From positions 157,312 to 221,311 of the forward strand of contig CAWBWI010000005.1 in NCBI GenBank assembly GCA_963792585.1: a DNA stretch of 64,000 bases, written 5' to 3'. The translations under genes and the position numbers were made by a program. This DNA is from Candidatus Eiseniibacteriota bacterium (GTDB lineage: Bacteria > Eisenbacteria > RBG-16-71-46 > CAIMUX01 > VGJL01). Numbering within the stretch: the stretch's first letter is position 1; each line of letters begins with the position of its first letter. Shown piece by piece: positions 18,070-43,040 of the stretch. The notes under the pieces are model-generated. The model searched no databases, was not told the origin of the DNA, and saw only the letters and a list, made by a program, of their open reading frames with translations.

Positions 18070-20367
18070 TCAGACGAGCCAGGCGTAGCCGAGCTTCATG
18101 AAGATCGTGCGATCCTCCGGCCGTAGCCCCCTCACGCGGGATCCAGCGTGATTCCCGGAGTAGCCGAGGTAGACGACGGTTTGAGGATTGACCTTGTACG
18201 AAAGCAGGAGTTGCCCGAAGAGGGCGCGGGACCTCGGCTGCAGGTCCATGGCGGGGTCGTAGAGCCTCGTGTTCAGCATCAAGTCCTCGTACTGAACGAT
18301 CGCGCGCGCGTAGGTGCGGACGTTGAACTGATAGACGAATCGCGAGTCGATCAGATTGATTTCGTAGAGCGTCTCGTCCGCTTCGGTGAGTCGCTGGTAG
18401 GTGTGATCGATGGTCATGCTCAGATGGTGCCCCAGGTTCCACTGGAAGCCGGGGCCGCCGCTCAGGTCCCGAGCCGGTCGGGCGTTCGCGTAGTCGATCG
18501 CCTTCCCCGTCCAGACGGTGAACCATCCCTTGAACGCGCCGACCGGTTGTCCCTCTATGTGGAAGCGGCCCGTCGTCACATCGTAGAGACGGCCGAGGTA
18601 TCGCTCCCGCGCGATGGTGAACTGCGCGTCCGATTCCGATTGCATCGGCCCTTGATAGCTGCCGCTGATCTCGATGCCGGAGTCGGTGAGTACCCCTCCC
18701 ATGTCGGTGGTCCTCTGAGCTTCAACGCCGTAGTTGAGGCGGGTGAACCACGATTCCTTCGCGCCATAGATGTGGCGCTGCGCGCCCACCTCGTAGTGCC
18801 GGACGTCGACCCGCGGGACGAAGCCCGCGTCGGCCCGGAAGTTCTGATCCAGGTTCTCGCCGTAAAACCAGCCGCTCCAGCCGCGCCTGTCGTGAGAATA
18901 GAGCAGGCTGCCTCCGAATCCGCCGAACGCGCGCGCCGGCTGGCCATATGCGGCAGCCGTCTCTTTCGGATAATGGGTCGCGGAGCCCACGGCCTGGTAA
19001 CGGATGAGATCTCCCTTTCCGATTCGGATGTGGCCGTCGAAGCCATACACGCGGTTGGAGTAGGAATCGCCTTCCCGGTCGGTGGCCAGCACCCCGATCG
19101 CCGATGCGCTCCCCACGTCCCGGCGGTAGCGGAGGACCCCGCTCGTCACCTTCCGGTCGAGGGCCGTCCCGTCGGATGAGAGATTCGATGGGAAGATCAG
19201 GTTGGGGTGATCGTCGCGCGTCACGAAGAGACCCACTGCAGACCCCGCGAGCTTGCCGGTCACCTTGCCGCCCCACGAGGGATCGACGACCGTTCGGGTG
19301 TAGACCGTTTGCAGCGGGGTTGCGAAGAAGTCCGAGCCCTCGAGGAAGAGGGGACGCTTTTCCGCATACTGCAGGGCGAAACGATTGTTGACCTCGAGCT
19401 GCACGGCGTCCGCTTCGACCTGGGAGAAGTCGGGATTGACGGCCGCGTTGAGGCTCAGGTTCGGCGTGACGCCCCAGCGGGCCGAGAGTCCCGCATCAGC
19501 CTTCTGATCTTCCTTCCGGAGGTGGCCGGACGATCCGACCGCGTCGGTTCGGTGGCCCGTCACCGTTGGATCGAATTCGAGGTTCCTCCCGGGCGTGATC
19601 CCCTCGAAACCGACGATCTTGCCCGCCTGCCGGAAGAAACCGCTCACGTCCCGATCGAAGATCACGGAGCTGAGCTGGTAGCGGACGCTCCGGGGGCGGG
19701 CGCGAAAAGCGACCAAGCCCCAAACCTGGGGACCGTCGGTGCGCGGGAAACGGAGCGCCGTGAAGGGAATCGCGATCTCGACCTCGTAGCCGTCGGCGGT
19801 GATCCGCCCCGCCGTGTTCCAGATCGCGTCCCAGGTGGAATCCTCGGGATCGTCCTCCGCCATATCGTTGCGGGCGAGGTCCATCTGCACACCGAATGGA
19901 TTGACGAAGAACTCGAAACCGCGGCGCTCATCGTTGAACGGGTCGATCATCAGGCCGACGAAGTCGTCCCGGAACGCGGCATCGCGATCGCTCAGGTGGG
20001 CGCGGATCTCGTCGGGCCTGGGGTCGCGAGCCCGGAATGCCGCATAGAAGTTCTGTTCATCGAAGGTGAGGAGGCACTCGGTCGCGACGGGCGCCGGGAC
20101 GTTGTCTCCCGGCTCGATTTCATACGGCAGGTCGATGACGAGGGCCCGACTCCATGCGGCATCGTCGAGCAGGCCGTCTACGTGGACGGACGACGTTGCG
20201 CGCGGCACCGGCCGCGGCGTTCTCTCCGAGGCAATCCGGCCGGCCGAGACGGCTCGAGGCTCATCGGCCCCGGCGCGCGCCGTCGGCAGCCCCCCCGCGA
20301 GCGCGAAGAAGCACGCAAGACACCAGAGGACTCGAAGAGCTGAGAGTGAACGATTCCCGCGGCGCAT
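18070..20367 (-). CDS. CBM9-like/DUF5916 outer-membrane protein
   Basis: VDGLLDDAAW, NPFGVQMD, EIAIPFTALRF, NPDFSQVEADA, EKRPLFLEG, C-terminal FMKLGYAW. Confidence 0.8.
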   Translation of the reverse strand: MRRGNRSLSALRVLWCLACFFALAGGLPTARAGADEPRAVSAGRIASERTPRPVPRATSSVHVDGLLDDAAWSRALVIDLPYEIEPGDNVPAPVATECLLTFDEQNFYAAFRARDPRPDEIRAHLSDRDAAFRDDFVGLMIDPFNDERRGFEFFVNPFGVQMDLARNDMAEDDPEDSTWDAIWNTAGRITADGYEVEIAIPFTALRFPRTDGPQVWGLVAFRARPRSVRYQLSSVIFDRDVSGFFRQAGKIVGFEGITPGRNLEFDPTVTGHRTDAVGSSGHLRKEDQKADAGLSARWGVTPNLSLNAAVNPDFSQVEADAVQLEVNNRFALQYAEKRPLFLEGSDFFATPLQTVYTRTVVDPSWGGKVTGKLAGSAVGLFVTRDDHPNLIFPSNLSSDGTALDRKVTSGVLRYRRDVGSASAIGVLATDREGDSYSNRVYGFDGHIRIGKGDLIRYQAVGSATHYPKETAAAYGQPARAFGGFGGSLLYSHDRRGWSGWFYGENLDQNFRADAGFVPRVDVRHYEVGAQRHIYGAKESWFTRLNYGVEAQRTTDMGGVLTDSGIEISGSYQGPMQSESDAQFTIARERYLGRLYDVTTGRFHIEGQPVGAFKGWFTVWTGKAIDYANARPARDLSGGPGFQWNLGHHLSMTIDHTYQRLTEADETLYEINLIDSRFVYQFNVRTYARAIVQYEDLMLNTRLYDPAMDLQPRSRALFGQLLLSYKVNPQTVVYLGYSGNHAGSRVRGLRPEDRTIFMKLGYAWLV

Positions 20368-20475
20368 CCCCCCACCTTCCAGACCGATCGACCGGGCGTC
20401 ATACGAGTTTCCCGGCTCGAAGGTTTCCACATTCGCGTCGTCACTCACGTCTGTAATCATTTATGCTGCGGCGTA

Positions 20476-21726
20476 TTACAGCTTCTGCACCACCACCGCG
20501 GTGATGTCGTCCGTCTGCGGCGCGCTTCCGGCGTGCCGGTCGACCGCACCAAAGAGTGCGTCGAGGACATCGGCCACCGGAAGTCCTCGCGTCGCCCGCA
20601 AGACGTCCCGAAACCGGCGCAGGCCGAACGGTCTCCCCAACCGATCCTCACGCTCGATCAATCCGTCGGTGTACATCACGACCCTGTCGTCCGGCCGGAG
20701 GCGGACATGCCCCCGCTCGTAGCGCGCCGCGGGATTCGGACCGAGCACGAGCCCCCCCCGATCGAGCGCCAGAAAGCGGTCTCCCCGCTGCAGAAACGGC
20801 GGGTTGTGGCCGGCATTGCAGTAGATCAAAGTGCCGCTGCGCTCGAACTCTCCATAGAAGAGGGATATGAACTTGCTCGAGAGGGCGGCGCGGTGGATCA
20901 CCTCGTTGAGTCGCTCGATCACCCGCACGACCTTCAGCTCCGGACGGATCCCCATCCGCAGTCCGGTGATCACGTCGCGCGCGAGCAGGGCCGCCGGGAG
21001 TCCGTGCCCCGAGGCGTCGGCGATGGTCACGCCGAACATCGAATCCGTGAGGCGAAGGTAGTCGAAGACATCCCCTCCGACGATTTCCGTGGGGCGCGAT
21101 CGACCGTCGATCTGGTATCCGTCGAACTGAGGCGGCGCCGCCGGGAGGAGGCTCTCCTGGATCACGCGGGATTCCTCGAGGATCCCGGAGAACTTCTGCT
21201 GTTCGAGTCGGAGATTGACAACGTGCCGGACCGCGCTCAGGGAATAGAGGATGTTCTCCTCACGGACCTCTCCGTTGATCGAGAAGGCGATTACGTGGGT
21301 GTTCCCCTTACCCACCGCGATGGCGGCGAATGTGGATCCGACCCCGAGGGTCTCCTCGATCGTGTCATCGAAGCCGGGGTCCCCGTGCTTCATGATCACG
21401 AGCCCTTCGTCGAGGGTCCGCTGGTGCGGGGGGTAGCTCCGCGGGACGCGATAGCCGATCGGCGCGCCGCGATTCGACCCGATCCGGACGAAAAGGGAAA
21501 AGTCCTCCCCGTCCCGCCGGTAGAGACGGCCGTGCTCGAATCCAAGTTCCTCCTGGAACCCCGAGATCAGGCTCTCGAGGATCCCCGAGAGCATCGTGGA
21601 CGGATCCTCGGCATGCTCGATCCTGCCGAGGACGGTCTCGAGCTTCCGGTAGAGCGCCTTGAAGTCCGCTCTCTTGGTCTCCAAGGTGGACACCGCCTTC
21701 GCCTGGGTCATCAGGACACCTTCCAT
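20476..21726 (-). CDS. SpoIIE/RsbU-type PP2C phosphatase with N-terminal GAF-like region
   Basis: VGGDVFDY, IADASGHGLPAAL, CNAGHNPP, YTDGLIE, DDITAVVV. Confidence 0.88.
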   Translation of the reverse strand: MEGVLMTQAKAVSTLETKRADFKALYRKLETVLGRIEHAEDPSTMLSGILESLISGFQEELGFEHGRLYRRDGEDFSLFVRIGSNRGAPIGYRVPRSYPPHQRTLDEGLVIMKHGDPGFDDTIEETLGVGSTFAAIAVGKGNTHVIAFSINGEVREENILYSLSAVRHVVNLRLEQQKFSGILEESRVIQESLLPAAPPQFDGYQIDGRSRPTEIVGGDVFDYLRLTDSMFGVTIADASGHGLPAALLARDVITGLRMGIRPELKVVRVIERLNEVIHRAALSSKFISLFYGEFERSGTLIYCNAGHNPPFLQRGDRFLALDRGGLVLGPNPAARYERGHVRLRPDDRVVMYTDGLIEREDRLGRPFGLRRFRDVLRATRGLPVADVLDALFGAVDRHAGSAPQTDDITAVVVQKL

Positions 21727-21824
21727 GTCTCCTCCGCGCGGTCGCTCTTTCCAAGACGCAGGGAGACGGCCATCCGTTCAGTGGGAAGATACCGGTTCGG
21801 GAGGGGGGAAGAAAACCGGGTCCG

Positions 21825-22976
21825 TCAGCCGTGCCGTTCCCGCAGGATGTGGGCTGCCTCGACGATGCGACGCATCTTTCCCGTCGCCGTGGCTTCGTCG
21901 TTCACGCAGCGGTCGGCGAAACACCCGAATCCGCAGTCGGGATTCAGGAAGATCGCCTCGGGGGGGTAGAACGCCAAGGCGCGCTCGACCCGCGCGACGA
22001 TTTCGTCGACGGTCTCGATCTCCGCGGTCCTCGGGTTGACGACCCCGAGACCGATCTCCCGATCGCCGAGGGCCGTGCCCACGACCTCGACATCCCCGGC
22101 GCGCGGGGTCGCGTACTCGAGGACGAACTGGCGCACGCGCATCCGATCGAAGGCGGGCAGCAGGCGCGTGTAGTCGCCCGACAACAGGACATCCTCCCGC
22201 CGGCTCCAGTTCCCGCGGCAGACATGGATGCCGATCCGCATCGCGCCGAGCCCCTCGACCACTTTGTTCAGGAGGTCGGCAGCGTAGTCGAGTTCCGAAC
22301 CCGCGTCCCGGCGGGTTGCCAGTGTCGCTCACATGAATGTTCGTCGATCGCATTCCTCCGACATGACGATCTCCGTCAGGACCGGCTCGTCGAACTGGAC
22401 GAAGTCGCACCCAGCCGCCGCGAGATCGGACAGCTCCTCGCGAAGCAGCCGGACGACATCTTCACCCATCTCGGTCTTGTCGGAGTAGACCTTCCCGGAG
22501 AAGGCGCCGACCCACATCGCGCGCGTCAGCAGGTACGGACCCGGCAGGGTCACCTTCACGGGCTTGTCCGTCAGTCCGCGGACGAAACGGAACTCCTCGA
22601 GCGCCAGCGGCTCGCGCCGGGAGAGTCGACCGACGCATGTCGGGTTGCTGATCGCGGAAGCGGGCACGTCGAGGGTCGAGAGCATCTCCTCGAATCCCGA
22701 CTTGTCCTCGACCGTGTCGAGCATCTCGGCCAGCGTCATCAACCTGGCGCCGTTCAGCTTCTCGGAGACGAATGAATAGAAGTTGTCCCTGCGGTGCTCG
22801 CCGTCGACGACGATGTCGACGCCGGCGTCGAGCTGGATCTGAACGGTTCGCCGGACTTCTTCGTCGGCGATCCGCTCGAAGGCCTCGCTCGCGATGCGGC
22901 CCTTGCGCCGGTCCCTCAGTGCGCGCAGGAGTTCCTGCGAGCGCGGCCAGCTTCCTACCTGGGTCACCGTGAACAT
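21825..22976 (-). CDS. Cobalamin-independent methionine synthase II family protein, 383 aa if the in-frame TGA is read as selenocysteine
   Basis: ORFs 22329..22994 and 21825..22262 are in the same frame, separated only by TGA at 22331-22329 (RRTFM*ATLATRRDAGSELDYAADLLNKVVEG). Motifs VGSWPRS, DGEHRR, QFDEP, HVCRGNW, LEYATPRAG, NPDCGF. Confidence 0.85.
22295..22322 (-). promoter_or_regulatory. Candidate bacterial SECIS hairpin in the MetE-like gene
   Basis: mRNA after UGA reads GCGACA-CUG-GC-AACCCGC-CGGGAC-GCGGGUU-CGG: perfect 7-bp upper stem starting 11 nt after UGA, G in loop position 2. Confidence 0.7.
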
Positions 22977-22990
22977 GGTCGGATGTCCTC

Positions 22991-23734
22991 TCACACGATC
23001 GCCAGCTTGAGGTCGAGGTCGACCGCCCGCCTCAGGGTCGAGGCGATCGGCGAGCGGAGAACGGTGCGCTCCCAGGCCTCCCGCACGCGGCCTTCATCCT
23101 CCATGGTCGAAGCGAAGCACTTCACCTCGATCCTCTGGAATGAGGGGTCGCCCTCCTGCAGGCCCAGGTGCGCCAGGACGTTTCCCAGCCGCCCCTTGAT
23201 CGTGATCTCCACGTCATCGATCCCGATGCCGGACCGGGAGCACTCGGTGGCGAAACCGACGGTGAGGTCCCCCGCCAACGCGCCGAGCATCACCTCGACC
23301 GCCGACGGATGCCGGTCCTTCTCCTCGAAGCTCGCCGGCTGCCCGACGTCGAACGAGAAGTTCCTGCAGTAGACGGTGCTCTTCAACGGACCGGTCGCGC
23401 GGACGCGCAGGCGCCACTCGTACTCGCGGGCGCGTTCCTTGTCCTTCTCCAGGGCCCTCTGCTCGTCCGCGGTATTCCCCCCGCGCCGAACGAAGTAGCG
23501 GGCCAGGGGCCCTTCCTTCACCGCGCCGAGGAACTCGTGGCCGACCATCCGGCACCAAGGGGGAAGGTCATCGCCGACGGTCGGCTCATGGCTGCGCATC
23601 TCGAGGACTCCCCCGTCCGGGACCTTGAGCATGTGCTCCCGAATCAGGAGGATCAGCCCGGAGCCGCAGTCGAGCTCTCCGCCGTCGAAGACGTGGTCGG
23701 GTCGGATCGCAGCCGGATCGATGGGTTCGGTCAT
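22991..23734 (-). CDS. TusA-like sulfur carrier fused to an OsmC-like domain
   Basis: N-terminal FDGGELDCGSGL...DLPPWCRMVGHEFLG (TusA/SirA fold). C-terminal PSAVEVMLGALAGDL...RSPIASTL (OsmC fold). Confidence 0.8.
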   Translation of the reverse strand: MTEPIDPAAIRPDHVFDGGELDCGSGLILLIREHMLKVPDGGVLEMRSHEPTVGDDLPPWCRMVGHEFLGAVKEGPLARYFVRRGGNTADEQRALEKDKERAREYEWRLRVRATGPLKSTVYCRNFSFDVGQPASFEEKDRHPSAVEVMLGALAGDLTVGFATECSRSGIGIDDVEITIKGRLGNVLAHLGLQEGDPSFQRIEVKCFASTMEDEGRVREAWERTVLRSPIASTLRRAVDLDLKLAIV

Positions 23735-23737
23735 TTC

Positions 23738-24103
23738 CTAGTACGACACACTCGGCGTGCCGCCGGAGAGGAACTCGACGAGCGCCGCCCCACCCGCGAG
23801 GGTCGCGCCGGGGATCAGCTGATCCTCCGTGATCGCCCGCTTCTTCGTGCAGGGCGTGCAGACGAGGATCTTGCCGCCGCCGGCAATGTACTTGTCGACG
23901 AGCTCCTTGAGGGGCGCGAATGGCGCGCCGATCGAGATCTTCTCCGCCTCTCCCTTCACCGCGGCCCAGACGCCGTCGGTGCTGAGAAAGATCATCGTAT
24001 CCTTCTCGCTACCCAGAGCCGCGTTGGCGACGACGAAACCGACCGTCGCCTTGTCGCCGTCCTCGCGGCAGTGGTTGAGCAAGACACAGAACTTCTCCGC
24101 CAT
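23738..24103 (-). CDS. DsrE/DsrF-like family protein
   Basis: KATVGFVVANAAL, IFLSTDGV, GGKILVCTPCTKKR. Confidence 0.85.
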   Translation of the reverse strand: MAEKFCVLLNHCREDGDKATVGFVVANAALGSEKDTMIFLSTDGVWAAVKGEAEKISIGAPFAPLKELVDKYIAGGGKILVCTPCTKKRAITEDQLIPGATLAGGAALVEFLSGGTPSVSY

Positions 24104-24104
24104 A

Positions 24105-24353
24105 CTAATCGCTCCTCTCTTTCACCTTCACGAGGTAGTAGGGGTGCTTTGCTTCGATCAGCCGGTGCCCCGTCATGCGGCACCATGCCGGCATCTCCAC
24201 AGGCGCCCCCTCGTCGTGCGCTGTCACGAGGACGAACGTTCCGCCCTCCTGTTTCCGAAAATGCATGCGCAGATCGATCAGGATCTCACCGCAGCCGGTG
24301 CCTTTCCCATCGAACTCCGAGTCATGCTTCCAGCCCGCGGGCGGACCGTCCAT
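24105..24353 (-). CDS. TusA/SirA-family sulfurtransferase
   Basis: 82-aa MDGPPAGWKHDSEFDGKGTGCGEILIDL...EMPAWCRMTGHRL. GGGAGG RBS. Confidence 0.8.
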   Translation of the reverse strand: MDGPPAGWKHDSEFDGKGTGCGEILIDLRMHFRKQEGGTFVLVTAHDEGAPVEMPAWCRMTGHRLIEAKHPYYLVKVKERSD

Positions 24354-24560
24354 CGTGCCAGCCTCCCAGCCCGCCTGGGATTCGAGCCCCCGGCGGACAT
24401 GGGCTCGATCGTAGCACCTGCCTTCTCCATTCTGTGTCGCATCTTGCCTGTGCCGCATCTTGCTGCCTCGAGGCTCGCCCGCGTGATAGAATTGGTCGGA
24501 TTGTTGTGGTCTGACCTCGTGCGCGGCCGCGCACGGCGCACGGAGGTGTGCTTGAGACGA

Positions 24561-26690
24561 ATGCTCCTCGTCTGCCTTCTGCTCCTCCCCGCGAGGACGA
24601 ACGCCATCACCCTCCGGGAAGCCTTCGAGCGGGCGGGCCCGGCGGATGGCTACGACAAGTACGTCGTCCTCGAACCGGGAGTGACCTACACGGGCGGACT
24701 CCTGATCGGCCCGATCTTCAGCCCGATCGCCTATGGGCTCGAAGGAGAAGAGGGGAAGGACGTACGGATCGTCGGGAACGGAGCAGTCCTCGATCTGCGG
24801 GGTGGACAGATCTGCATCTCCTATTGCATGAACCGCCTCGACATCGACGACTGCGTCGTGCTTCGTGGCAACATCCGTTTCCGTGGGATCAATACCGCGG
24901 ACGATGTCGCGCTCCCGACGGGATCGGTCCGGCACGTCACCTTCTACAAGCCGCACGACTACGGAATCCGACTCCAGGGCTCCGGAGACGGGATCACGCT
25001 CGAACGCAATCTGGTCGTCGATGCGGTCGACACCGGCTGGGATTACGTCTACATGACCGGAATCTCAAATAGCTGGTTGCCCACGGGGACCAACATCTCG
25101 TTCAGCGGGCAGTACGGATGGTACGGCACACCCGTGGTGCGCGAGAACTGGTCCTACCAGAGCGACCCGGTTCGCAATGCCGATCCTCTGACCCACTTCT
25201 CGCGGCTCTGCGAATACGGCTGATTCGCGCCGATGCCGTGGCCGGGCGCCACCATGCCTCCGAACAACAACCGTTTCGGGGTGGATCCTCTCCTGCGGAA
25301 TCCGGAGGAAGGCGATTACCGGCCGGAGCCCGGATCACCGGCTGAAGGATACGGCTGTCGGACATTCCCACCCGGCGGGCCGCGGGCCGGCGCGCAAGAG
25401 GCACCCCGACCCACAGCCCTTCCCGCCGCGGGGACGCGGGAAACGGTTCAGGTTTCCGGTCCGATCCATGGCGACACCTCATGGGATGCCGATACGATCG
25501 CGGTCGTCGGCGACGTCACGATCGAAGACGGCGTGACCTTGTGGATTCGGCCGGGCGCATGCGTCGCCTTCCAGGGCGCCTACTCCTTGACCGTGATGGG
25601 TCGGCTCCTTGCGATTGGCACGCCGGAGCAGCGCATTGTCTTTACCGGTGGGGCGGCCATGGCTCGCACGGCGGGATCACGCGAAGGAAGCTGGACGGGG
25701 ATCCGCTTCCCGCGCACCGCGGCGACGAATGACTCGACGCGCCTCGAGTACTGCGTCATCGAGTACGCGCGGGCCCCCGCAGGGGGATCCTTCGGCGGCG
25801 CCCTTTTCTTCGACGGTTTCTCGAAGGCCGCCATCGTGAACTCGATCCTGCGCAGCAACGTGGCGCAGTTCGGCGGCGCCGTCTTCTGCATCCGCCAGGC
25901 ATCTCCGCGTTTCGCCGGCACGCTCATCACCGGCAACTCTGCGGAGGTCACCGCCTCGGCCGTCTACAGCATCGACTCCTATCCCACCTTCGCGAACTGC
26001 ACGATCGTGAACAACCACGACCGGAACGCCGAGCCGAGCTGGCCGACCGCCGCGTTCGTCAACTTCATCGCGAAGGCGCGCACGACCGGCTGCGTGGTTT
26101 GGGACAACCCCTCCTCCTACTTCCTCCCAACCCAGATGATCGAACCGAAGGCACCCTACACCACCTACGACGACATCCAGGGAGGGATCCCGGGCGAGGG
26201 AAACATCGACCTCGATCCGGCCTTCGCCGGAGATGCGGGACATCCCTATCGCCTGAGGGCCGACTCCCCGTGTCGGGACGCGACGGGAAACGCGACCGTT
26301 GGCCTGCCGGACCTCGATCTGGCCGGGTCGCTGCGGGTCGTCGGGGCGGCCGCTGACATCGGAGCCTACGAGTGGATCGACCCGAGCAGCGCGACCGAAA
26401 CCAGCGCGACGCCCCGCTTCGACTTCTCCCCGTGTCCGAATCCGACGGGCGGCGAGTCGGTCCTGCGTTTCACACTGCCCGCGCCGGCGCGTGTCGAAAT
26501 CGGGATCTATGATCTTGAGGGCCGACTCGTGCGCACCCTGCCCGGCGCCGACCTCGCATCGGGATCGCACGTGATGATCTGGGATGGAACGGACGCATCG
26601 GGTCGATCGGCGGCGGCGGGCGTCTACTATGCCCGGCTTTCGGCGGGGGACGCCGCCTCCGCCGTCGCGAAGATCACGATCGCAAGATAG
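24561..26690 (+). CDS. Secreted right-handed beta-helix protein with FlgD-Ig C-terminus, ~709 aa if the in-frame TGA is read as selenocysteine
   Basis: GGAGGT RBS and signal peptide MLLVCLLLLPARTNA (alternative TTG start at 24552). The ORF ending at TGA 25221-25223 and ORF 25233..26690 share a frame (RLCEYG*FAPMPWPG). C-terminal PNP...WDGTDASGRSAAAGVYY. Confidence 0.75.
25233..25255 (+). promoter_or_regulatory. Candidate bacterial SECIS hairpin in the beta-helix gene
   Basis: AUG-CC-GUGGC-CGGGC-GCCAC-CAU, loop 19 nt after UGA. Same CGGG loop start and 2-nt 5' bulge as the hairpin in the MetE-like gene. Confidence 0.6.
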
Positions 26691-26763
26691 GCCTGCAAGC
26701 GCGATCGTTGCGTCGTCTTCCGGGGCGGGCGGCACGCGCGATGCGATCCCGTCCGTGAAGGCC

Positions 26764-29008
26764 TCAGTCTGTGGCGCCGCCCACCACGACCTTGCCGGTC
26801 GCCGCAAATCCGGGCCCGCGCAAGCGGAGGAAGTAGGTCCCGGGCGCGGGCCGGGAACCATCCTTGCGCCTCCCGTCCCACGCAACGTCCCACTCCCCGG
26901 CATCGAACATGCGATCCGCGAGGATCGCGACCCGGCGCCCCGCCGCATCGAAGAGCTCGAGCCGCGCGGCACCCGCGTTCGGCGTACGGATCCGAATTCG
27001 GGTCGAGGGACCGACCGGATTCGGCGCGATCGATCCGATCTCGGCGAGGCTCCGCGCCCCGGCGGCCTCCGCCACCCCGCTGACCCCGCGCTCGATCTCG
27101 GCAAGGAACCAGGTCGCGTTCTCGGCGGTGATGTCGACGTGCCCCTGATTGTCGGCCGGGAAGTAGACCGCGTCGAAGGGGGTATGGGTGAGGACGTCGG
27201 GATCGCCGGCGATGTCGTAGAACAGATCGGTCGTATCGAGCGCGAGCGCGCTCACGGTCGGGATGAAGCAGTGGTTGGGATACGGAGCGATGATGTCCCC
27301 GTAGCCGGGATCACTCGCGCCGAGCTGTGCCATCGTGTCCCGCCATCCTCCCGGCGCATTGTCGTAGGGCCGGGTCCCCGCGATCGTGATGGTGACCTCG
27401 TCGGCCGGCAGGAAGATGTAGTCGATCATTCCGTGGAAGATGTCGTGGCTCGACATGTTCGGCACGGCCCAGCAGTTCCCCGTGATGTCGACGAGGAAGC
27501 TCGTGTACTCCCAGCGGATGATCTGGGCGCCGGCGGCGAAGCCCTGGCTCCACCTGGATCCGCTCCCGTTCGCGATCGCGACCTTGCGCGGCGCCGGTCG
27601 GCTAGTCCCCCACGGCGGCGATTTCGGACATCAGGGCCGTCCGCAGCGGATCGGCCTGCCCCCCGCCGCCGGGCGGATCGGTGTGGTGGTAGACGAGCAG
27701 CTGCCGCGCGGCCGGCGTGTCGAGCGACGCGAGGTTCGCCGCCGCCTCGGTCGACTGGTCGGAGAAGAACCAGAGCCAGTACTGGATCCCGAGCGGAATG
27801 TCCGCGCCCGAGTTGCGGCGAGTCGAACGAGATGAAGGTGCGCACCGAGTGGGGAAGGCCGTGCGTCTCCATGTAGGCGAGCGCATAGCGACCGACCAGG
27901 CCCCCCATGCTCGCGCCGACCAGCGCCATGGTGTTCGCTGGACCGACGGCCGCGCGAATCTTGCCCGATCAGCTCGACGGCGACGAAGGCGTTGCGCTGG
28001 ATGTAGTCGCCGCCGTTCGCGAAGTTAAGGACGACCGCGTCGAAGCCGCGACTCCGAAGCTCCTCTACGAGCTGCTCCCGGTTGAGGAGCGCGTAGAGTT
28101 CGTCCCAGTTCATCGTGTTGTCCGGATCGAATCCCTCGATCAGGAGCGACGGGCTTGGTCAGCGTCGGCATGCTGGCCGGAGAGGTAGACGTACGCGTCA
28201 CCCGCGCCGTAGCCGCCGAGATACGGAATCGTCGCCGTGACATGGAGCGTGTCGTTGGGCGCGGGGGCCAATAGCTCGCGAACCTCGAACGGGAAGCCGG
28301 CCTCGAGGGTCGCTCCGTCGTCGAAGAGGGAACGCAGCCGGATCTGTTCCAGTCCCGTCTCCGGATACCGCACGTCCATCCCGCTTCCCATGGAAACGAC
28401 GACGAAGCCGCGCCCATCGTCGAAGTCGATCATCGTCGAGAGCCGCGCGGCCGGGTCGTTGCCGAAGGAAGCGTCGGCATCCACGCGAAACCGCACCTTG
28501 GAGCCGCGGTAGGTGTGGTCCCGCAGGGGCGCCGCGGCGAAGACGCGCCCGGCGACGAAGGGGTTGCCGCTACCCATCTCCAACCGTGACCCCCGGACGA
28601 CGAGGGATCCGTCCTCGAGCGCATCGGGCCGGATCCGGTCGTAGCGGAAGTCCATGACCACGATCGGGATGTTCGCGGGCCCCGACATCTCCTCGCCGCG
28701 CGCGATGATCGAGGGGAGATCCGGCCAGGACGGGGTCGCGATCGACGCCCGTCGGATTCGTCGTAGAGCTGGCGCCACTGTTGAAGGTCCGTCGGCTTCG
28801 AATCCTCCCCGCCGTCGTGTTCCTCGATCCGCGATAGGGGAACCACCCGATCATAGAGGATGCCCGTCGGGACGCTCTCGGCGGGCAGCGCTCCCAGGAT
28901 CTCCCCCAACCGCTCTGTTACGTTCCGTGCAGGCGCCGATCTCACGCCCGACGGAGCAAGAACGACCAGACAGGCGACGACCAGTGTGGCGCGGCCGGCG
29001 TGAGACAT
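26764..29008 (-). CDS. Secreted alpha/beta-hydrolase-domain protein with FlgD-Ig C-terminus (several frameshifts)
   Basis: Signal peptide, VPTGILYDRV, GGDYIQRNA, GASMGGLVGRYAL (GxSxG), HCFIPTVSAL, WDGRRKDG, spread over five or more frame segments. Confidence 0.7.
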
Positions 29009-29152: not shown

Positions 29153-30086
29153 GTGGACCCGGCACGCGCCCTCGACCGACGTCGATTCCTGAGCGCCGCC
29201 ATCGGCATCGCGGCTGCCGTACCGCTCATCGGTCAGTTCCGGCACGCTGCGGCATCGACGGAAACCACCCAAGGAGCCCCCGCCATGAGCCCCGAAAAGC
29301 CCTTCCCGGGCCGCATGCCGGTCCTCTTCATCGGCCATGGATCCCCAATGAACGCGATCGAGGACAACGAGTGGAGCCGCCAGTTCCGGGCTCTCGCGAC
29401 GTCGCTCCCCCGCCCCCGAACGGTTCTGTCGATCTCCGCACACTGGTTCGTGCCGGGGACCTTTCTCACGGGCAACGAACGCCCCGAGACGATTCACGAC
29501 TTCGGCGGGTTTCCCCAGGCGCTCTTCGACATGCAGTATCCCGCCCCCGGGAGACATCGAACTGGCCAAGCACGTCGTCGAACTCCTTGGCCCCGAACGC
29601 GCATCGATCCGGACGGACTGGGGGCTGGATCACGGGACGTGGACGGTCCTGCATTACCTCTTGCCAAGGGCCGACTGCCCCGTCGTGCAGCTCAGCATCG
29701 ATGAGCGGATGCCGCCCGCCGGCCATCTGGCCCTGGGCCGCGTCCTGGCCCCGCTCCGGGATGCCGGCATCCTCGTCCTTGGCAGCGGCAACATCGTTCA
29801 CAACCTTCGCTATGCGTTGACGAGCGCCGCGAGGGGTGACCTCTCGACCCCCGAGTGGGCCGCCGCGTTCGATGCCGATATCGCCCGCGCGATCGAACAG
29901 CACGACGGGGCCTACCTCGCTTCGGCGGTCGAGAACGCGAACGGGAAGATGGCCCATCCGACCCTCGACCACTATCTCCCGCTCCTCTACGCCGCGGGGG
30001 CTGCCGATCCTTCGGATCCGGTTCGTTTTCCGATACAAGGCTTCGACTACGGATCGCTCTCGATGCGGGCCGTCCAATTCGGGTGA
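29153..30086 (+). CDS. ygiD: 4,5-DOPA extradiol dioxygenase (LigB family), frameshift near 29550
   Basis: MPVLFIGHGSPMNA, ISAHW, TIHDFGGFP, then in another frame DHGTW, PVVQLSID, GSGNIVHNL, AHPTLDHYLPLLY. Confidence 0.85.
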
Positions 30087-33317: not shown

Positions 33318-34490
33318 CTATGGTCTCGCCTTCTCCTCTTCCCAGGGCGGCAAGATCTTGACCAGCACCCAGAGGATGACGAACGGCAGAATCATCAGAA
33401 GGATCGAGGGCAGGAGCCCCTCCCGCGTCGCGAAGCCCAGCTTGTAGGTCGTGTAGCCGAGGAAGCTCTTCGAGAAGAGCTGCCCGCCGATGACCACATT
33501 CCACCGCATCGCGAAGATCCCGATCAGCGTCAGAAGCCCCGCGAAGAAGTAGATGGTCTTGCGCCCCGCCGCGGTGATCTTCGTCACCTGGGTGAGGCCC
33601 AGAAGGAAGAGCGGCACCAGCGTCCCCAGGAAGATCTGGATGATGATCTGGGACCCGTAGAGCTTGGTGTGCACCATGAAGTCCAGACTCTTGAACGACT
33701 CGTCCGCCTCGTAGATCCGGTGGATCAGGTCGAGCATTTCGAGCGAGAAGTCGATCAGGAACGCATAGAGCAGGTATCGCGCGATCGTGTCGACGCAGTC
33801 CATCCGGATCTCGGTCCTCTTGAACCAGCTCACGACCATGTAGATCATCATCACCGCCGCGATCCCGGACACGATGGCGGAGAAGATGAAGACGACGGGC
33901 ATCAGGGGAGTCGACCACCAAGGATTCGCCTTGATCGAACCGAAGATGAACCCGACGTATCCGTGCAGCAGAAAGGCGGACGGGATCCCGACGATCGTGA
34001 GGAACCGGCCCACCTTGGCGTCGATCTCGAGCGACTGCGGGCTGATGTTCGAAGAACCGAGGCTCAGAACGCGGTAGAAGAACCCCTTCAGACCGCCGGC
34101 CTCCCGCCCCGTCTCGACGATCTGCTTCCGGTAGTCGATCCAGATCTCGAGCAGGAGCACCACGAGCAGGTACCAGAGGTAGACAAAACCGAACATGGCC
34201 ATCGCGGAACTCTGGTGCGGCGTCAGGTACATTTCCAGCGAGCGCTCGGGATGCCCCAGGTGGAGTTGCAGCGGAAGCGGGGCCACGAGAAGGAACGACA
34301 ACGCGGTCAGGAGCGCCAGGCGATAGGTCGGACGGACCGCCGCAACGTTGAAGACCCGCTCGAGCGAGGCGAGGATGAAGGCGCCCGCGACCAAACCCGT
34401 GATGAACGGGTAGAGGACGATCAGGAGACTCCACTGGAGTTCGGCTTCGTTGGGATAGATGAACCCGCGGACCGCATGGACGACGTCCAT
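33318..34490 (-). CDS. NrfD/PsrC/DsrP-family membrane anchor
   Basis: WSLLIVLYPFITGLVAG, HLGHPER, LHGYVGFIFG, RWNVVIGGQ; about 10 TM helices. Confidence 0.88.
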   Translation of the reverse strand: MDVVHAVRGFIYPNEAELQWSLLIVLYPFITGLVAGAFILASLERVFNVAAVRPTYRLALLTALSFLLVAPLPLQLHLGHPERSLEMYLTPHQSSAMAMFGFVYLWYLLVVLLLEIWIDYRKQIVETGREAGGLKGFFYRVLSLGSSNISPQSLEIDAKVGRFLTIVGIPSAFLLHGYVGFIFGSIKANPWWSTPLMPVVFIFSAIVSGIAAVMMIYMVVSWFKRTEIRMDCVDTIARYLLYAFLIDFSLEMLDLIHRIYEADESFKSLDFMVHTKLYGSQIIIQIFLGTLVPLFLLGLTQVTKITAAGRKTIYFFAGLLTLIGIFAMRWNVVIGGQLFSKSFLGYTTYKLGFATREGLLPSILLMILPFVILWVLVKILPPWEEEKARP

Positions 34491-34498
34491 CTTCCCCC

Positions 34499-35281
34499 CT
34501 ACCGAACCGACGCATCCAGACCGTTGTAATAGGTCTTGGATCCGGTGGCCATCTGCGGCTTGAGGACCTGGACCTTGTGCGTGGCCAGGAACTCGTGAAT
34601 TGGATCTTTCGGGTCCTTCAGGTCACCGAGGACCCTCGCCCCCGTGGGACAGGTCTCGCAGCATGCAGTGGTGAGCCCCTTGGAGATGCGGTGATAGCAG
34701 AGACTGCACTTGTCCACCGTGTTCGAGCGGGGGTCGATGAATCGGCAGCCGTATGGGCATGCCTGGACGCAGTAGCGGCAGCCGAGGCAGTAGCTCTTGT
34801 CGACCAGCACCACGCCGTCCGGACTCTCGAACGTGGCGCCCACCGGGCAAACCTGCACGCAGGGCGAATGGGCGCAGTGGTTGCAGAGCTTCGGCACGAA
34901 GAAGCTCTTCGCGCCGTCGCCCGCGTGATAGCGCTCCGGGAAACCGTCGTAGCCGCCGTTGGGGGAGTCCACGTCGGGATGGTCCTCCGCCTCCAACCGT
35001 GACGGGTCCTTGGCGGGAACGTGGTAGCGCTCGACCCACGTGCGGAAGTACTCGGGCGCGAGCGGCACATCGTTCTCCTGCTTGCAGGCGCGAACGCAAT
35101 TGCCGCAGCCGACGCACTTCTCGATGTCGATGATCATCGCCCACCAGTGCTCGGCGGTCTCGTAGCCGGGCGCCGCCGCCGGCTTTCCGGCAATCAGGCT
35201 CTCGAGCGACAACGCGCCGGACGCAGCGAGCAACACGAAACGCGCCCCGCTGCGCAGGAAATCTCGGCGGTCGACCTCCAT
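34499..35281 (-). CDS. Tat-exported 4Fe-4S protein (NrfC/DsrO/TtrB-like)
   Basis: DRRDFLR signal; CVGCGNCVRAC, CNHCAHSPCVQVCP, CLGCRYCVQACP, KCSLC...CCETCP. Confidence 0.9.
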   Translation of the reverse strand: MEVDRRDFLRSGARFVLLAASGALSLESLIAGKPAAAPGYETAEHWWAMIIDIEKCVGCGNCVRACKQENDVPLAPEYFRTWVERYHVPAKDPSRLEAEDHPDVDSPNGGYDGFPERYHAGDGAKSFFVPKLCNHCAHSPCVQVCPVGATFESPDGVVLVDKSYCLGCRYCVQACPYGCRFIDPRSNTVDKCSLCYHRISKGLTTACCETCPTGARVLGDLKDPKDPIHEFLATHKVQVLKPQMATGSKTYYNGLDASVR

Positions 35282-35291
35282 GGTTGGTCTC

Positions 35292-35753
35292 CTACTCCAC
35301 TTCCGGGTGGTGGGGTTGATGGCAACTGGTGCAGACCTCTCCCCCCGAGTGCTCATCCCCGTCGACTTGGGGGAACGCGGCGGGACGGGCGACGTTTCGT
35401 TCGTGGCAGCTCCGGCAAAGGGTCTTCGCGTCGGGCAGTTCGGGCTGCGATCCGCTCGGGTCCGCCGCATGCGCCGCGAGGGCCCCGTGACACGCCTCGC
35501 AACCCACATGCTCGTGCCTGTGCCCGGCGCGGCCTTCCACGACGTCGGCGTGGCATTCTTCGCAAGCAGCGCGCCCGGCGAACGAGATCGGCATCGCGGC
35601 GTTGTCGGCCAGCGCTCCCGGACGATAGTGCCCGTACTGGCCGAAATCCTTGGGGATCATTGCCGCGCGGAGGATCAGGAAGAGGACGATCCCCACGCCG
35701 AAGAGGATCGCGGCGCGGACGAAATGCTCGACGTCCTTGAACTTGAAGCTCAC
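35292..35753 (-). CDS. Membrane-anchored tetraheme cytochrome c
   Basis: N-terminal TM helix; CEECH, CEACH, CRSCH, CTSCH. Confidence 0.88.
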   Translation of the reverse strand: MSFKFKDVEHFVRAAILFGVGIVLFLILRAAMIPKDFGQYGHYRPGALADNAAMPISFAGRAACEECHADVVEGRAGHRHEHVGCEACHGALAAHAADPSGSQPELPDAKTLCRSCHERNVARPAAFPQVDGDEHSGGEVCTSCHQPHHPEVE

Positions 35754-35834
35754 ACGTCCCCTCTCTTCTTCAGAGTCCGCTTCTCAGCCTGTGACCGTCC
35801 CCGCCCCGATCGGCCGGGCGCTCGCGACGCCGGG

Positions 35835-36984
35835 TCAGCGGCCGGGCGGCGTCTCCGGTCCTACCGTCCGCTCGGTCGTGTAGAAAGTGATCCAGGTCCG
35901 ATTCTCCGTGTCCCCCGTCGGAGCGTGCTCATAGGAGAGGCGCACGCTCACGAATGCCGTCGACTGCCGGAAGACCGGGAATCGAAACGTCTCGGTTCGA
36001 GATTCGCCGCCGAGGATCCGGGTGTCCGCCGTGCGCCTGACGCCCTTCGCGAAGTAGCCGCTGTCCGTGATGATGGGGGCGCCCGTCGCGTCCTCGAAGG
36101 TCTGTCCGTAGGTCCTCTGCTCGTTGTACGTCTGCCCGTCGCTCGTCTTGACCTTGATTTCCAGGACGACGCGACGCGAGGGCATGCCGGTGGGCACGGC
36201 ATGGCCGGCCCCGACATTCTTGAGACCGACGTCGAGAACGAGATGGCCTTCCGATCGCTTGGGATTGAAGGTCACCGGCCAACGCCTTGTTGAGTTGCGT
36301 GATCGAGTGGCCGCCCGGAACGTCGTGGAGGTTCACCTCGGCATCGGGAACTCGGGCTACCCGCGCGTCCACGACTTCCGCCTCGGTTCGGTTCATGTGG
36401 CAGGTCTGGCAGGTCCGCCCGTCCTTTGCCGCCGGGCTCTGCTGCCATTCCGAGTAGGTGGCCATGATCACCGTGCCCTCGGGGTTCCGGTACTCGTGGC
36501 AAGGGGCGCACACCGCGGCGGTCGTGTGGAGCTCGGAGTACTGCACGTCGTGCGCCATGGACTCGGCGTCCTTGATCGGACCACGCTTGACCTTGCCGAT
36601 GTCGTAGGTCAGCTTCGTGCCCAGTTCCGTCACCTCCACGGAGGAGATCCCGTGGCAGATATCGCAGCTGACCCCCTCCCATGACACCTTCAGATCGAGG
36701 TCGGCATCGTTGAGAAGATCCGCGGCGGGGCCATGGCACCCGGTGCAGATCCGGCCGACGGACGCCCCTTCTCTGCGGTTCGTCTCCCGGTAGGCATCCA
36801 GGAAGATCGGATCCTCCATCGCCCGGGCGTGGGCCGAGGTCCGCCACATTCGGTAGATGTCCCGGTGGCATTCGCTGCAGACCTCGCTACGCGCAGGCCG
36901 CCCACTCGAGCCCCCGGGGGAGGCGAGCGACGGCCCCACATAGGCGAGGGTTCCGGCCAAGATCAGTACGTTCCAGCGACGCAT
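35835..36984 (-). CDS. Pentaheme cytochrome c (c554/c552-like) with C-terminal beta domain, frameshift near 36280
   Basis: Signal peptide; CSECH, CTGCH, CDICH, CAPCH, CQTCH; continues in a second frame with NVGAGHAVPTG. Confidence 0.82.
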
Positions 36985-37508
36985 GCTGCCCTCCGTGGAG
37001 TGGAATGGCGGCGGCCTTCCCCGAGTCGGAATGGAGCAATTCAGCCCTGGAATCCGGTATCTGTCAATGTGTAAATGGGTTGTGGGTGTCGAATGTCCGC
37101 GTTGAAATTCTTGTATACGATTTCACTAACAGCACATCTGATCGATGTGGCGCAGAGTCGCACCCTCGAATCAGAAGCTGGAATGCTCCAACGCGATGGG
37201 CTGTATCACGAGGACGACTGAATGCCGCGATCCCACCGACCCCGAAGAAGGAGCGAACCATGGGTCTTGCTCCGGCATGCCACGCAGGATTTTTCATAGC
37301 GCCCGGCGTCGTCGGTCTCCTCCGGTGGGAATGTCCTCCATGGGGGCCGCGAGTCCCTCCACATCCCCCGACCCTGCCCCATTCTGAATTCTTTACGGTG
37401 ATTCCAAGTTTGGTCGGCATTGCTTATGATCTTCCAGGGCCGACCCGGGAGCGCCGCCCCGGGGATCAATGACCAACGACGGGGCGCCGATCGGCGCAGG
37501 AGAACTCG

Positions 37509-37829
37509 ATGCCGGCTTTCGACTTCCACGGAAAGGTGCTCGAGATCAACGAAGAGGGATTCCTCGCCCATCCGGAAGAGTGGACCGAGGAGTTGGCGGC
37601 GTTTCTGGCGCGCGAGGAGGAGAACCTCGATCAGTTGACCGACGAGCACTGGGCCGTCATCCGTTTCATCCGTCAGCATTACGAGGAGAAGCAATCGGCC
37701 CCGATGGTCCGTTCGGTCTGCAAGGCCACCGGGCTGCCCCTGAAGCGCGTCTACGAGTTGTTCCCATCCGGTCCCGCGAAGGGCGCCTGCAAGCTGGCGG
37801 GTCTTCCCAAGCCCGACGGCTGCGTCTAG
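37509..37829 (+). CDS. dsrC: DsrC/TusE sulfur relay protein with both C-terminal cysteines
   Basis: EEGFL...LTDEHWAVIRFIR...LFPSGPAKGACKLAGLPKPDGCV (C-X10-C). Confidence 0.88.
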   Translation: MPAFDFHGKVLEINEEGFLAHPEEWTEELAAFLAREEENLDQLTDEHWAVIRFIRQHYEEKQSAPMVRSVCKATGLPLKRVYELFPSGPAKGACKLAGLPKPDGCV

Positions 37830-37832
37830 GGC

Positions 37833-38468
37833 ATGGCGGATCCCCTTCGGATCGGCGTCGCAATCTGCGGCGCATGGGCGCTCGCCGCGATCACCTCCCA
37901 AGTCCTACGCGCGAGGTCTTACGGCAGACGGCCGCTTTACGCGCCACCTGCGGGAGATCCTGTCAAAGCGATCCTCTACGCATTCGGTCCGGGGATGTCC
38001 CCAACCGCCAAGGAAAGCGTGCGGGAACACATCTCCGCCTATCTCGCCGGAATGGGGTATCACCTCGGAATCTTCACCTCGATGGCGATCCTGGCGGTCC
38101 AGATCGCAGGCGGGGCGGCGAGTGGGCCGGTGCTCTTGGCGTTGCGGATGCTCAGTCTGACGGGAGCCGTCTGCGGGTTGACCCTGCTTGCGCGGCGTCT
38201 CGTAACCGCTCCCCTGCGGGGGTTGAGTTCCCCCGACGACTACATCGCCAACGCGCTGGTGACGGCCTTCGCGGCCCTGGCTCTTGCGTCCACGCTCAGC
38301 GCCGCCGCACTGCCCATCTTGCTGGCGGAGAGCATGATCCTCTTCCTCTACCTGCCTCTCGGCAAGATCCGGCACTGCTTCTTCTTCTTCACCACCCGTT
38401 CGGCGGCGGCGGCGCAGTTCGGCCGCCGCGGAACCTGGCCACCGGCGCACTCGTCCGGGCGCGGGTAG
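37833..38468 (+). CDS. NarI/DsrM-like membrane subunit
   Basis: About 5 TM helices, YHLGIF, SSPDDY, YLPLGKIRH; lies between dsrC and the DsrK-like gene. Confidence 0.65.
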   Translation: MADPLRIGVAICGAWALAAITSQVLRARSYGRRPLYAPPAGDPVKAILYAFGPGMSPTAKESVREHISAYLAGMGYHLGIFTSMAILAVQIAGGAASGPVLLALRMLSLTGAVCGLTLLARRLVTAPLRGLSSPDDYIANALVTAFAALALASTLSAAALPILLAESMILFLYLPLGKIRHCFFFFTTRSAAAAQFGRRGTWPPAHSSGRG

Positions 38469-38477
38469 GGCGGCGAC

Positions 38478-39819: not shown

Positions 39820-39828
39820 GAGGAAACC

Positions 39829-41063: not shown

Positions 41064-41274
41064 GGGTGCCTCCCTCCCGGCGAATCACATCCGTGGCTGC
41101 AACCGGGAATGAACCTTGCTATTGTCCGCCACCGAGGGGCGGCAACCTGCGGGTTTCCCGTATGTGTGGCCGCGGGCGAGCCTTCCGGATCCTCGCCATG
41201 GCGCCGACGTTCGGGTCCGCATTGCTTCGGGCGTGCGTTCCGCAATTGTCGCGCCTGGGCGAGGAGAATGCACC

Positions 41275-41952: not shown

Positions 41953-42137
41953 GGTCGGGGTCTGCTGGCACGGGGTCCGCTGGAACCTGGACCCGCACAG
42001 GACAATTCAGTACGATTTCCTGTTTTCTATTCCCCGATCCGACCAATTACTCGAAACAGGAGATCCACATGGGTGCCCGGCTCCGACGCGGCCGGAACCG
42101 ACTTGTCTGGTTGCTCTGCCTCCAGGAGGTGTTCCGA

Positions 42138-42905: not shown

Positions 42906-43040
42906 GGCGGGAGTCTTCTCGCGGCGGCCCGCCCGTCTTGCCGATGAAGGAAACCTGTCCTATCATCCGCTCACGGCACCGACTTCCTCGAGCCGGCGGA
43001 CGGTGACAGACCCGATCCCATTCGAAGCGGAGGACCCTGC

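Follow-up and report, generated by a model that had tools for sequence, protein, structure and literature searches.

The locus described here raises the question whether two divergent genes, each interrupted by an in-frame TGA, encode selenoproteins and whether these proteins belong to one system. It lies at positions 21,825 to 26,690 of a 64,000-nt stretch of DNA (the window) from a Candidatus Eiseniibacteriota bacterium (contig CAWBWI010000005.1 of assembly GCA_963792585.1), where a minus-strand operon ending in a MetE-like gene diverges from a plus-strand gene for a predicted secreted protein. Comparison with homologues leaves hardly any doubt that the UGA of the MetE-like gene is decoded as selenocysteine (Sec, U), and Sec decoding of the UGA in the secreted gene is predicted just as firmly on the same kind of evidence. 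Taken as a whole, the reading towards which we lean slightly is that of two independent Sec genes using the ordinary SelB and Sec insertion sequence (SECIS) route, with an operon that likely serves selenium metabolism, possibly the corrinoid-free recovery of methyl selenides, and a secreted CxxxU/UxxxU motif that would provide an extracellular site for redox chemistry or soft metals. The features of the locus, including the bacterial SECIS (bSECIS) hairpins, are the following:

24353-24105, minus strand: TusA-family protein, 82 amino acids (aa), Pfam match below the gathering cut-off; in 76/80 related loci, with invariant C21 and C58
24103-23738, minus strand: DsrE-family protein, 121 aa (Pfam); in 76/80 loci, with invariant C6 and C82-x-x-C85
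23734-22991, minus strand: TusA-OsmC fusion protein, 247 aa (Pfam, the TusA match below the gathering cut-off); in 80/80 loci, with invariant C23 and C61, both in the TusA part
22976 (ATG) to 21825 (stop), minus strand: MetE-like core protein (Meth_synt_2 only), 383 aa, with predicted Sec216 in RTFM-U (Pfam, alignment, model)
within 21825..22976, minus strand: zinc-ligand positions H251, C253, E287 and C348 of the MetE-like protein (alignment)
22331-22329, minus strand: in-frame TGA, predicted Sec216 (TGA in 80/80 GTDB loci, Cys in 119/120 protein matches)
22298..22317, minus strand: predicted bSECIS hairpin of the MetE-like gene, stem ACCCGC / GCGGGT, loop CGGGAC from +19 (constrained codons and conserved pairs, 85 unique Sec loci)
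24354-24551, no strand: divergent spacer, 198 bp, without Rfam match or sigma-70-like site
24552 (TTG) to 26690, plus strand: predicted secreted selenoprotein, 712 aa (Pfam, NCBIfam, models, alignment)
25209..25223, plus strand: CEYG-U motif with Cys220 (TGC) and TGA 25221-25223, predicted Sec224 (TGA at the first site in 20/74 unique loci)
25238..25252, plus strand: predicted bSECIS hairpin core of the secreted gene, GTGGC-CGGGC-GCCAC, loop from +20 (pair counts, folding)

Conservation of the in-frame UGA codons

The coordinates, gene order, strands and 198-bp spacer described in an earlier note on this DNA agree with the sequence and with Pfam, and each outer gene is indeed split by a single in-frame TGA (22331-22329 and 25221-25223) and by nothing else. 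The likeliest start of the MetE-like gene, ATG 22976, is where its homologues begin and makes the TGA residue 216; the secreted gene starts at TTG 24552, preceded by GGAGG, and its TGA is residue 224. The Sec machinery that the note advised looking for is present in the source genome (G000; 84% complete, 65% GC), which encodes tRNA-Sec, selA, selB and a selD bearing its own in-frame TGA; the loop of the selD hairpin lies at the same distance from the TGA as in the secreted-gene hairpin.

The note had also pointed to matching SECIS-like hairpins. Their loops do start with CGGG, after 18 nt in the MetE-like and 19 nt in the secreted gene, and a 2-nt bulge can be drawn on the 5' side of both (read from the sequence, the cores having been folded). 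The hairpins by themselves are within chance: of the 981 TGAs with coding-like flanks in G000, 82 satisfy a bSECIS-type rule with at least the stability of the weaker window hairpin (-6.4 kcal/mol), 27 of them at similar spacing. Nor do homologues of the secreted gene keep the lower stem and its bulge: pairs 12-14 are present in 24-33 of 59 loci. What stands is that both hairpins are conserved as SECIS elements in homologues. The case for Sec rests on conservation in homologues and not on the resemblance of the two hairpins.

Matches to the MetE-like gene occur in 21 of the 206 genomes of the window's phylum. The site reads TGA in eight (the window included) and TGC or TGT in 12 of 20 aligned loci, an alignment that omits two pieces of one frameshifted copy because they did not align. 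In one relative the gene is frameshifted exactly at the Sec codon (G009:C28:35745-36918; L029, L034). The aligned site is TGA in all of the 80 best of 396 GTDB relatives, whose best named matches include Candidatus Eisenbacteria records; these loci were picked by likeness to a Sec-form query, so that the figure is not the Sec fraction of the family. Among 120 protein matches the site is Cys in 119, and the remaining one is without the segment.

The codons under the hairpin are strikingly constrained in the 85 unique Sec loci: codon +5 is ACC in 83 and +6 is CGC in all 85, +9 is GCG in 73 and GTG in 12, and +7 is CGT in 44, CGG in 41 and never CGC, a codon that accounts for 1087 of 2642 Arg codons elsewhere in the same genes. 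Five core pairs are kept in 85/85, with the sixth altered on both sides in one locus, and the loop is always CG[G/T]GA[C/T], which fits the published model of G followed by G/U early in the loop (PMC13188914). The G[G/U] of the loop and a distance of 16-37 nt from the UGA, by which bSECIS elements are recognized, are found in the MetE-like gene and conserved. The hairpin-spanning peptide RRD[AV]G is present in 85/85 Sec loci as against 3/119 Cys forms.

A tree of 68 MetE-like rows, computed after masking the site, requires three changes of state and has Cys forms nested within the Sec clade; it is a quick tree with a long outgroup and Shimodaira-Hasegawa-like approximate likelihood ratio (SH-aLRT) support only, built without three distant Planctomycetota genomes. 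These three, which belong to the distant clade, have TGA at the same site followed by a different hairpin, apparently a separate second gain of Sec. A cysteine preceding the motif, Cys209, accompanies 69/80 Sec loci, while the ten residues before the motif hold Cys in 0/119 Cys forms. The cultured strains Desulfopila sp. IMCC35008 and Fundidesulfovibrio agrisoli SG106 are among the carriers of the Sec form.

The full secreted domain is found in 15 other genomes of the phylum, with TGA, selA and tRNA-Sec in all 15. Altogether 96 loci were examined (16 genome, 80 metagenome), from which 10 cut before the site, six duplicates and six of a distant short subfamily were dropped. TGA stands at the second site in all 74 remaining unique loci, and the first site is Cys in 54 and TGA in 20 (UxxxU). 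The distant short beta-helix subfamily (about 260 aa; L209, L211-L215, P0164, P0168) has a single CG-U motif, with TGA at four loci and Cys at two. The earlier expectation that gene calling splits the outer genes is borne out by the databases, which hold the secreted family as halves of 216-231 aa and about 490 aa; the best 120 database N-halves all end just before one or other of the two sites (108 and 12). Intact Cys forms are the P0123 cluster (named Cloacimonadota) and P0282. In both families, then, homologues have TGA (80/80 and 74/74) or Cys (119/120 for the MetE-like site; P0123 and P0282 for the secreted one), as the note had anticipated for Sec positions.

The secreted-gene hairpin was scored in 72 loci with enough sequence. 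It is encoded by W-x-x-A in 59, where three core pairs are kept in 59/59, the Ala codon (+9) is GCC in 58/59 (28 expected) and the third base at +10 is T in 32/50 (5.5 expected); in 12 of the other 13 loci V-S-W-A-like codons build a hairpin at the same spacing. Its loop is separated from the second UGA by about 20 nt and from the first by 32 nt, distances that fall within the published range, and one hairpin could therefore serve two UGAs. Several counts weigh against so uniform an element: pair 19-25 is kept in 34/59, G is at +21 in 39/59, and 12/59 hairpins have neither this G nor the full window-like C19-G25 pattern. The secreted SECIS is thus looser than the MetE-like one.

The MetE-like operon and selenium

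The model of the MetE-like protein (predicted local distance difference test, pLDDT, 87.6) has the fold of the catalytic half, or barrel, of MetE (Foldseek E 6e-22, template modelling score 0.75 to 1xpg). H251, C253, E287 and C348 together with S9, E60 and D196 are invariant in 99 rows and correspond, as matched by motif and not by direct alignment, to the zinc and homocysteine residues of Price et al. (PMC7857596; E. coli numbering). The protein thus resembles the MetE catalytic half and MesA-MesD (PMC7857596; PDB 1XPG, 3RPD, 1YPX) in its barrel, its His-Cys-Glu-Cys zinc and homocysteine-contact positions and its lack of a folate domain; it differs from them in having about 22% identity, an extra invariant Cys/Sec loop, and TusA, DsrE and TusA-OsmC as partners, not a corrinoid protein or MesX. 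Full-length MetE (TIGR01371) has an N-terminal folate-binding half and about 750 aa, in contrast to the 383 aa without that half here, and the MetE-like protein scores 108.7 bits against the TIGR01371 cut-off of 929.95 and misses every NCBIfam methionine synthase cut-off. Its match to MesD 3rpd, the member of MesA-MesD that was compared, is weak (74 bits). The model places Sec216 in a poorly ordered loop that joins strand 4 to helix 4, on the barrel face bearing the zinc site.

The four-gene operon is conserved as the note had described it: TusA-OsmC precedes the MetE-like gene in 80/80 loci, and DsrE and TusA are each present in 76/80. Besides these genes and other-frame open reading frames of them, no gene recurs in more than 10 of the 80 loci, and no corrinoid, folate or MesX-like gene is recurrent within 5 kb of the operon (cluster representatives judged by eye). 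Each carrier has two to three invariant cysteines and Sec in none of the 80 loci; the OsmC part of TusA-OsmC has no invariant Cys. An identity as OsmC peroxidase or as the OsmC-related selenoprotein NF041052 was rejected (16.8 bits against 95, and no invariant Cys or Sec in the OsmC domain). In four Planctomycetota loci (L266-L269) a gene with a GNCTDFH motif, which we take to be transglutaminase-like, stands directly upstream of the operon, and their TusA has an extra Cys-rich N-terminal extension.

The distribution of the operon suggests that it is linked to the use of selenium. Of 401 evenly sampled Planctomycetota genomes, 60 have the MetE-like gene, and selA is found in 60/60 of these carriers against 299/401 overall; six of the 60 are Sec forms (33 genomes were read out, the other 27 having no internal stop). 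Six of 296 Chloroflexota genomes carry the gene, all six with selA (223/296 overall). Pooled, the gene is present in 66/522 selA-positive and 0/175 selA-negative genomes (Fisher p 2e-9, uncorrected for kinship or genome size), and Sec forms make up seven of the 66 carriers, most of which are Cys forms. That Cys forms also track selA suggests that the operon serves selenium metabolism rather than merely using Sec, and from these gene distributions we consider a tie of the four-gene operon to selenium supply fairly probable. A test inside the window's phylum does not discriminate, because selA is present in 33 of the 36 genomes chosen, and selB and tRNA-Sec in the remaining three.

How might such an operon work? 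Type 1 mlp gene clusters provide a corrinoid-dependent route of methyl-selenide salvage, and selenide can react with S-adenosylmethionine, which wastes selenium (PMC10418091, a preprint). These clusters and the operon both have a methyltransferase of the UroD/MetE superfamily and are enriched in Sec-using genomes (87% there, 66/66 here), whereas the corrinoid protein and reductive activase of type 1 mlp are not seen in our operon, which has cysteine carriers and a Sec loop instead. YedF/FdhU (TIGR03527; PMC5322559) is a precedent for TusA plus DsrE in selenium metabolism: like other TusA-DsrE relays it joins TusA-like and DsrE-like (CxxC) domains and is tied to selenium use. The operon differs from it in its separate genes, the additional OsmC-like fusion and zinc enzyme, and a TusA motif xCG instead of CPxP.

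The mlp precedent, the loss of selenium through S-adenosylmethionine, the tie to selA and a separate MetH-like gene in the source genome together make corrinoid-free methyl-selenide salvage the function that we tentatively favour for the MetE-like operon, at a probability well short of even. In this scheme methylselenol would be trapped on the cysteines of TusA, TusA-OsmC and DsrE, forming a mixed selenenyl-sulfide, and then be handed to the loop Sec or Cys of the MetE-like enzyme; the methyl group would pass to zinc-activated homocysteine, giving methionine, and the protein-bound perselenide would return via the carriers towards SelD. Cys209, found in Sec forms only, may resolve oxidized Sec.

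Several observations weigh against this proposal and the selenium link behind it. To our knowledge, methyl transfer from a selenenyl-sulfide is without precedent in the literature covered. pLDDT is below 50 on both sides of Sec216, so that a reach of this residue to the zinc is hypothetical. No sel gene is recurrent next to the operon in the neighbourhoods of related loci. Background selA is 75% in both Planctomycetota and Chloroflexota, the Chloroflexota sample by itself is not significant (p 0.34), and one Sec-form genome (G209, a 1.6-Mb assembly) has neither a selA match nor selB above the cut-off. The co-occurrence counts are uncorrected for genome size, and p 2e-9 is an overstatement, since both centre genomes had been picked for carrying the Sec form, related genomes are counted as if independent, and the genomes listed without selA are smaller. 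Modelling a naturally occurring Cys-form enzyme of the family (L258) in complex with zinc and the adjacent TusA-OsmC protein gave a score of 0.04 (mark 0.32) and counts neither way.

The operon may alternatively be a sulfur or thiol relay without a special role in selenium supply, in which Sec would only speed the reaction and the selA link would reflect lifestyle. Examples would be a folate-independent methionine synthase with a methyl-sulfur donor, or a thiol-alkylating enzyme similar to epoxyalkane:coenzyme M transferase. TusA and DsrE are known persulfide carriers, the positions that bind homocysteine and zinc are kept, Cys forms make up most of the family and the selA background is high; however, even the Cys form is found in none of the 175 genomes without selA (with the uncorrected p given above), and the source genome already owns its MetH-like gene. 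We regard such a relay as possible although rather unlikely. Less likely still is selenium delivery without methyl transfer, in which the zinc would bind selenide, selenohomocysteine or free selenocysteine, and the loop and carriers would be loaded with perselenide for SelD. The same selA co-occurrence, the two to three invariant cysteines of each carrier and the link of YedF, with its TusA-like and DsrE-like domains, to SelD (PMC5322559) are all compatible with it, but it leaves unexplained a methyltransferase barrel with intact homocysteine contacts, and neither selD nor a lyase gene is recurrent beside the operon.

The predicted secreted beta-helix protein

The secreted protein consists of a signal-peptide-like start (by eye), a beta-helix domain with C220-x-x-x-U224, a second beta-helix, a choice-of-anchor-Q-like segment and a tail like those of FlgD and the type IX secretion system (T9SS). 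The first domain is modelled with pLDDT 96.7 as a right-handed parallel beta-helix (residues 18-275), the fold of pectin lyase-like proteins, NosD and tailspikes, from which it differs by 7-17% identity and by carrying CxxxU/UxxxU. All 50 rows of a VIA structure search are beta-helix proteins (polysaccharide lyases, tailspikes, adhesins), many of them tied, with a best Z of 13.2 and a root-mean-square deviation of 3.4 A over 163 residues. Foldseek gave no match at E 0.001, Pfam has no family for the domain carrying CxxxU, and its ESM Atlas neighbours are generic beta-helix clusters of NosD/pectinesterase-like proteins.

The tail scores 21.3 bits against the cut-off of 23 of the T9SS type A sorting model TIGR04183; in shorter relatives the domain is joined straight to Por_Secre_tail (above cut-off), and one relative is fused to rhodanese domains. 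Two points count against the reading of this protein given below: the secretin-like SprA gene of G000 is in frameshifted pieces and below cut-off, and the secreted gene has no conserved neighbours that would hint at a function in 34 loci of at least 4.5 kb (largest cluster four loci).

Judged from these comparisons, the CxxxU/UxxxU motif is probably redox- or metal-active rather than structural, and the pair would serve extracellularly as a redox centre or soft-metal site. The alternative of a structural staple, a selenenyl-sulfide or diselenide in a glycan-binding or adhesive beta-helix, seems unlikely to us, even though the fold matches are all polysaccharide lyases, tailspikes and adhesins, the language-model neighbours are NosD/pectinesterase-like beta-helices and export of the protein is predicted. 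Sec at the second site in 74/74 loci and its gain at the first in 20 argue against a staple, as do the fusion to rhodanese domains in one relative and the placement of Sec mostly in redox or metal sites in catalogued selenoproteins (PMC13188914).

Linkage, genome context and significance

The earlier note had read the locus as a co-located S/Se trafficking system with both selenoproteins, which here would mean co-regulation with the carriers across the spacer. The common 198-bp spacer and a 94%-identical contig that spans both genes are in its favour. However, 0/101 MetE-like loci have the secreted gene nearby (in 21 of them the flanks covered were 1.5 kb), and 0/95 loci of the secreted gene have the operon nearby (many contigs being short). 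Within the phylum, 21 genomes have the MetE-like gene and 16 the full secreted domain, and both are found only in G000 and G006, in the latter on different contigs; the arrangement is preserved only in the near-identical relative (94% DNA identity). The single-system view is therefore largely refuted and very improbable, and of the gene order that the note had proposed to compare, the four-gene operon is conserved and its pairing with the secreted gene is not. By these gene-order comparisons the two selenoprotein genes are, with high probability, unlinked and their pairing local.

It is next to impossible that the TGAs represent genuine stops, errors of assembly or Trp codons of another genetic code. 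The assembly is frameshifted elsewhere (ahcY, sprA) and a few database proteins have W at the Cys/Sec sites, but TGA recurs in 80 and 74 independent loci whose reading frame is conserved on either side of it, Cys stands there in intact homologues, and these genes also end in TGA as terminal stop. W occurs at both Cys-equivalent sites of AT-rich records, presumably through translation of TGA as Trp during gene calling. The Trp residues at one or both sites in P0124, P0135, P0144, P0146, P0276 and P0283 probably represent Sec codons translated in this way with table 4. Among the differences listed for the 94%-identical contig, which covers both TGA sites, none is at either codon; a further 332 differences lie outside that list. 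RNA-library contigs cover most of the stretch; being assembled contigs, they are no measure of transcription.

An Rfam search of window positions 20000-28000 found nothing, and no promoter or terminator consensus was found around the locus, including no sigma-70-like site in the spacer. At 33321-43559 of the window, 7-17 kb from the operon, there are NrfD and 4Fe-4S genes, a CCG-domain gene, a rubrerythrin and, in pieces near 39829-41060, a cysteine desulfurase-like class-V aminotransferase; recurrence of these genes beside the operon was not seen in relatives. A predicted secreted hydrolase-like gene (26764-29008) and a dioxygenase-like gene (29153-30086) are split by apparent frameshifts, judged by eye, and ahcY (C1:459179-460427) and sprA (C4:17198-21309) of G000 are in frameshifted pieces; all four are likely assembly errors.

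G000 has further candidate selenoproteins. A de novo TGA scan gave many false positives, and the 21 candidates inspected include at least four that are ordinary junctions between genes or frames that do not code. Predicted secreted proteins of about 190 aa with GxGx-U and no Pfam match (G000:C1:1777540, minus strand, and G000:C5:107461, plus strand; L225, L226, L271-L275) have a conserved GACTG-GGTC-CAGTC hairpin; four of five matches in three related genomes have TGA and one TGC, and they are a candidate third uncatalogued family by sequence. Four predicted secreted proteins with UxxC near the N-terminus (G000:C6:900851, 968110, 970444 and 742343, all minus strand; L216-L218) share a CCCG-GTG-CGGG-type hairpin and FlgD/T9SS-like tails, one being frameshifted, and suggest a set of exported selenoproteins in the lineage. 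L219-L224, L227, L228, L230 and L232 are further likely selenoproteins, each with a G[G/U] hairpin: known types are TlpA-like, peroxiredoxin, AhpD/CMD, rhodanese CxU, HesB-like, Prx-like and arsenite methyltransferase-like, and less familiar ones an RWPYT-U motif ahead of a redoxin domain and a 47-codon UxxC frame. A bolder proposal, namely a widespread cobalamin-free selenium salvage operon plus a secreted UxxxU beta-helix as the first of several surface selenoproteins of the FCB (Fibrobacteres-Chlorobi-Bacteroidetes) group with type IX-like export, we consider improbable at roughly one in four.

Like the prokaryotic selenoproteins catalogued in Table 1 of PMC13188914, both genes have a UGA with a downstream bSECIS, at a distance of 16-37 nt and with G[G/U] near the start of the loop, and both families have Cys homologues; some catalogued families have two Sec. 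Among the 119 families of that table there is no Meth_synt_2 or beta-helix entry and no CxxxU/UxxxU motif, and the available main text and supplements of BSepDB (PMC13326102) and deep-Sep (PMC12013277) contain no methionine synthase, beta-helix or FlgD entry, the BSepDB database itself lying outside this search. Neither protein has a seleno-specific model in NCBIfam 20.0. The open full-text literature, in the parts accessible and with subscription journals outside its scope, reports neither selenoprotein nor the operon, and its sole CxxxU match is a trypanosome paper. Both families are thus very likely absent from the current catalogue.

The bacterial selenoproteome would therefore gain two folds, the MetE barrel and the beta-helix, which databases store as split hypothetical proteins. 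The operon, unstudied, present across phyla and apparently tied to selenium use, leads to a specific hypothesis on how cells may supply or recover selenium. The secreted family suggests extracellular selenium chemistry and offers a natural series of CxxxC, CxxxU and UxxxU forms in which one hairpin is placed for two UGAs.

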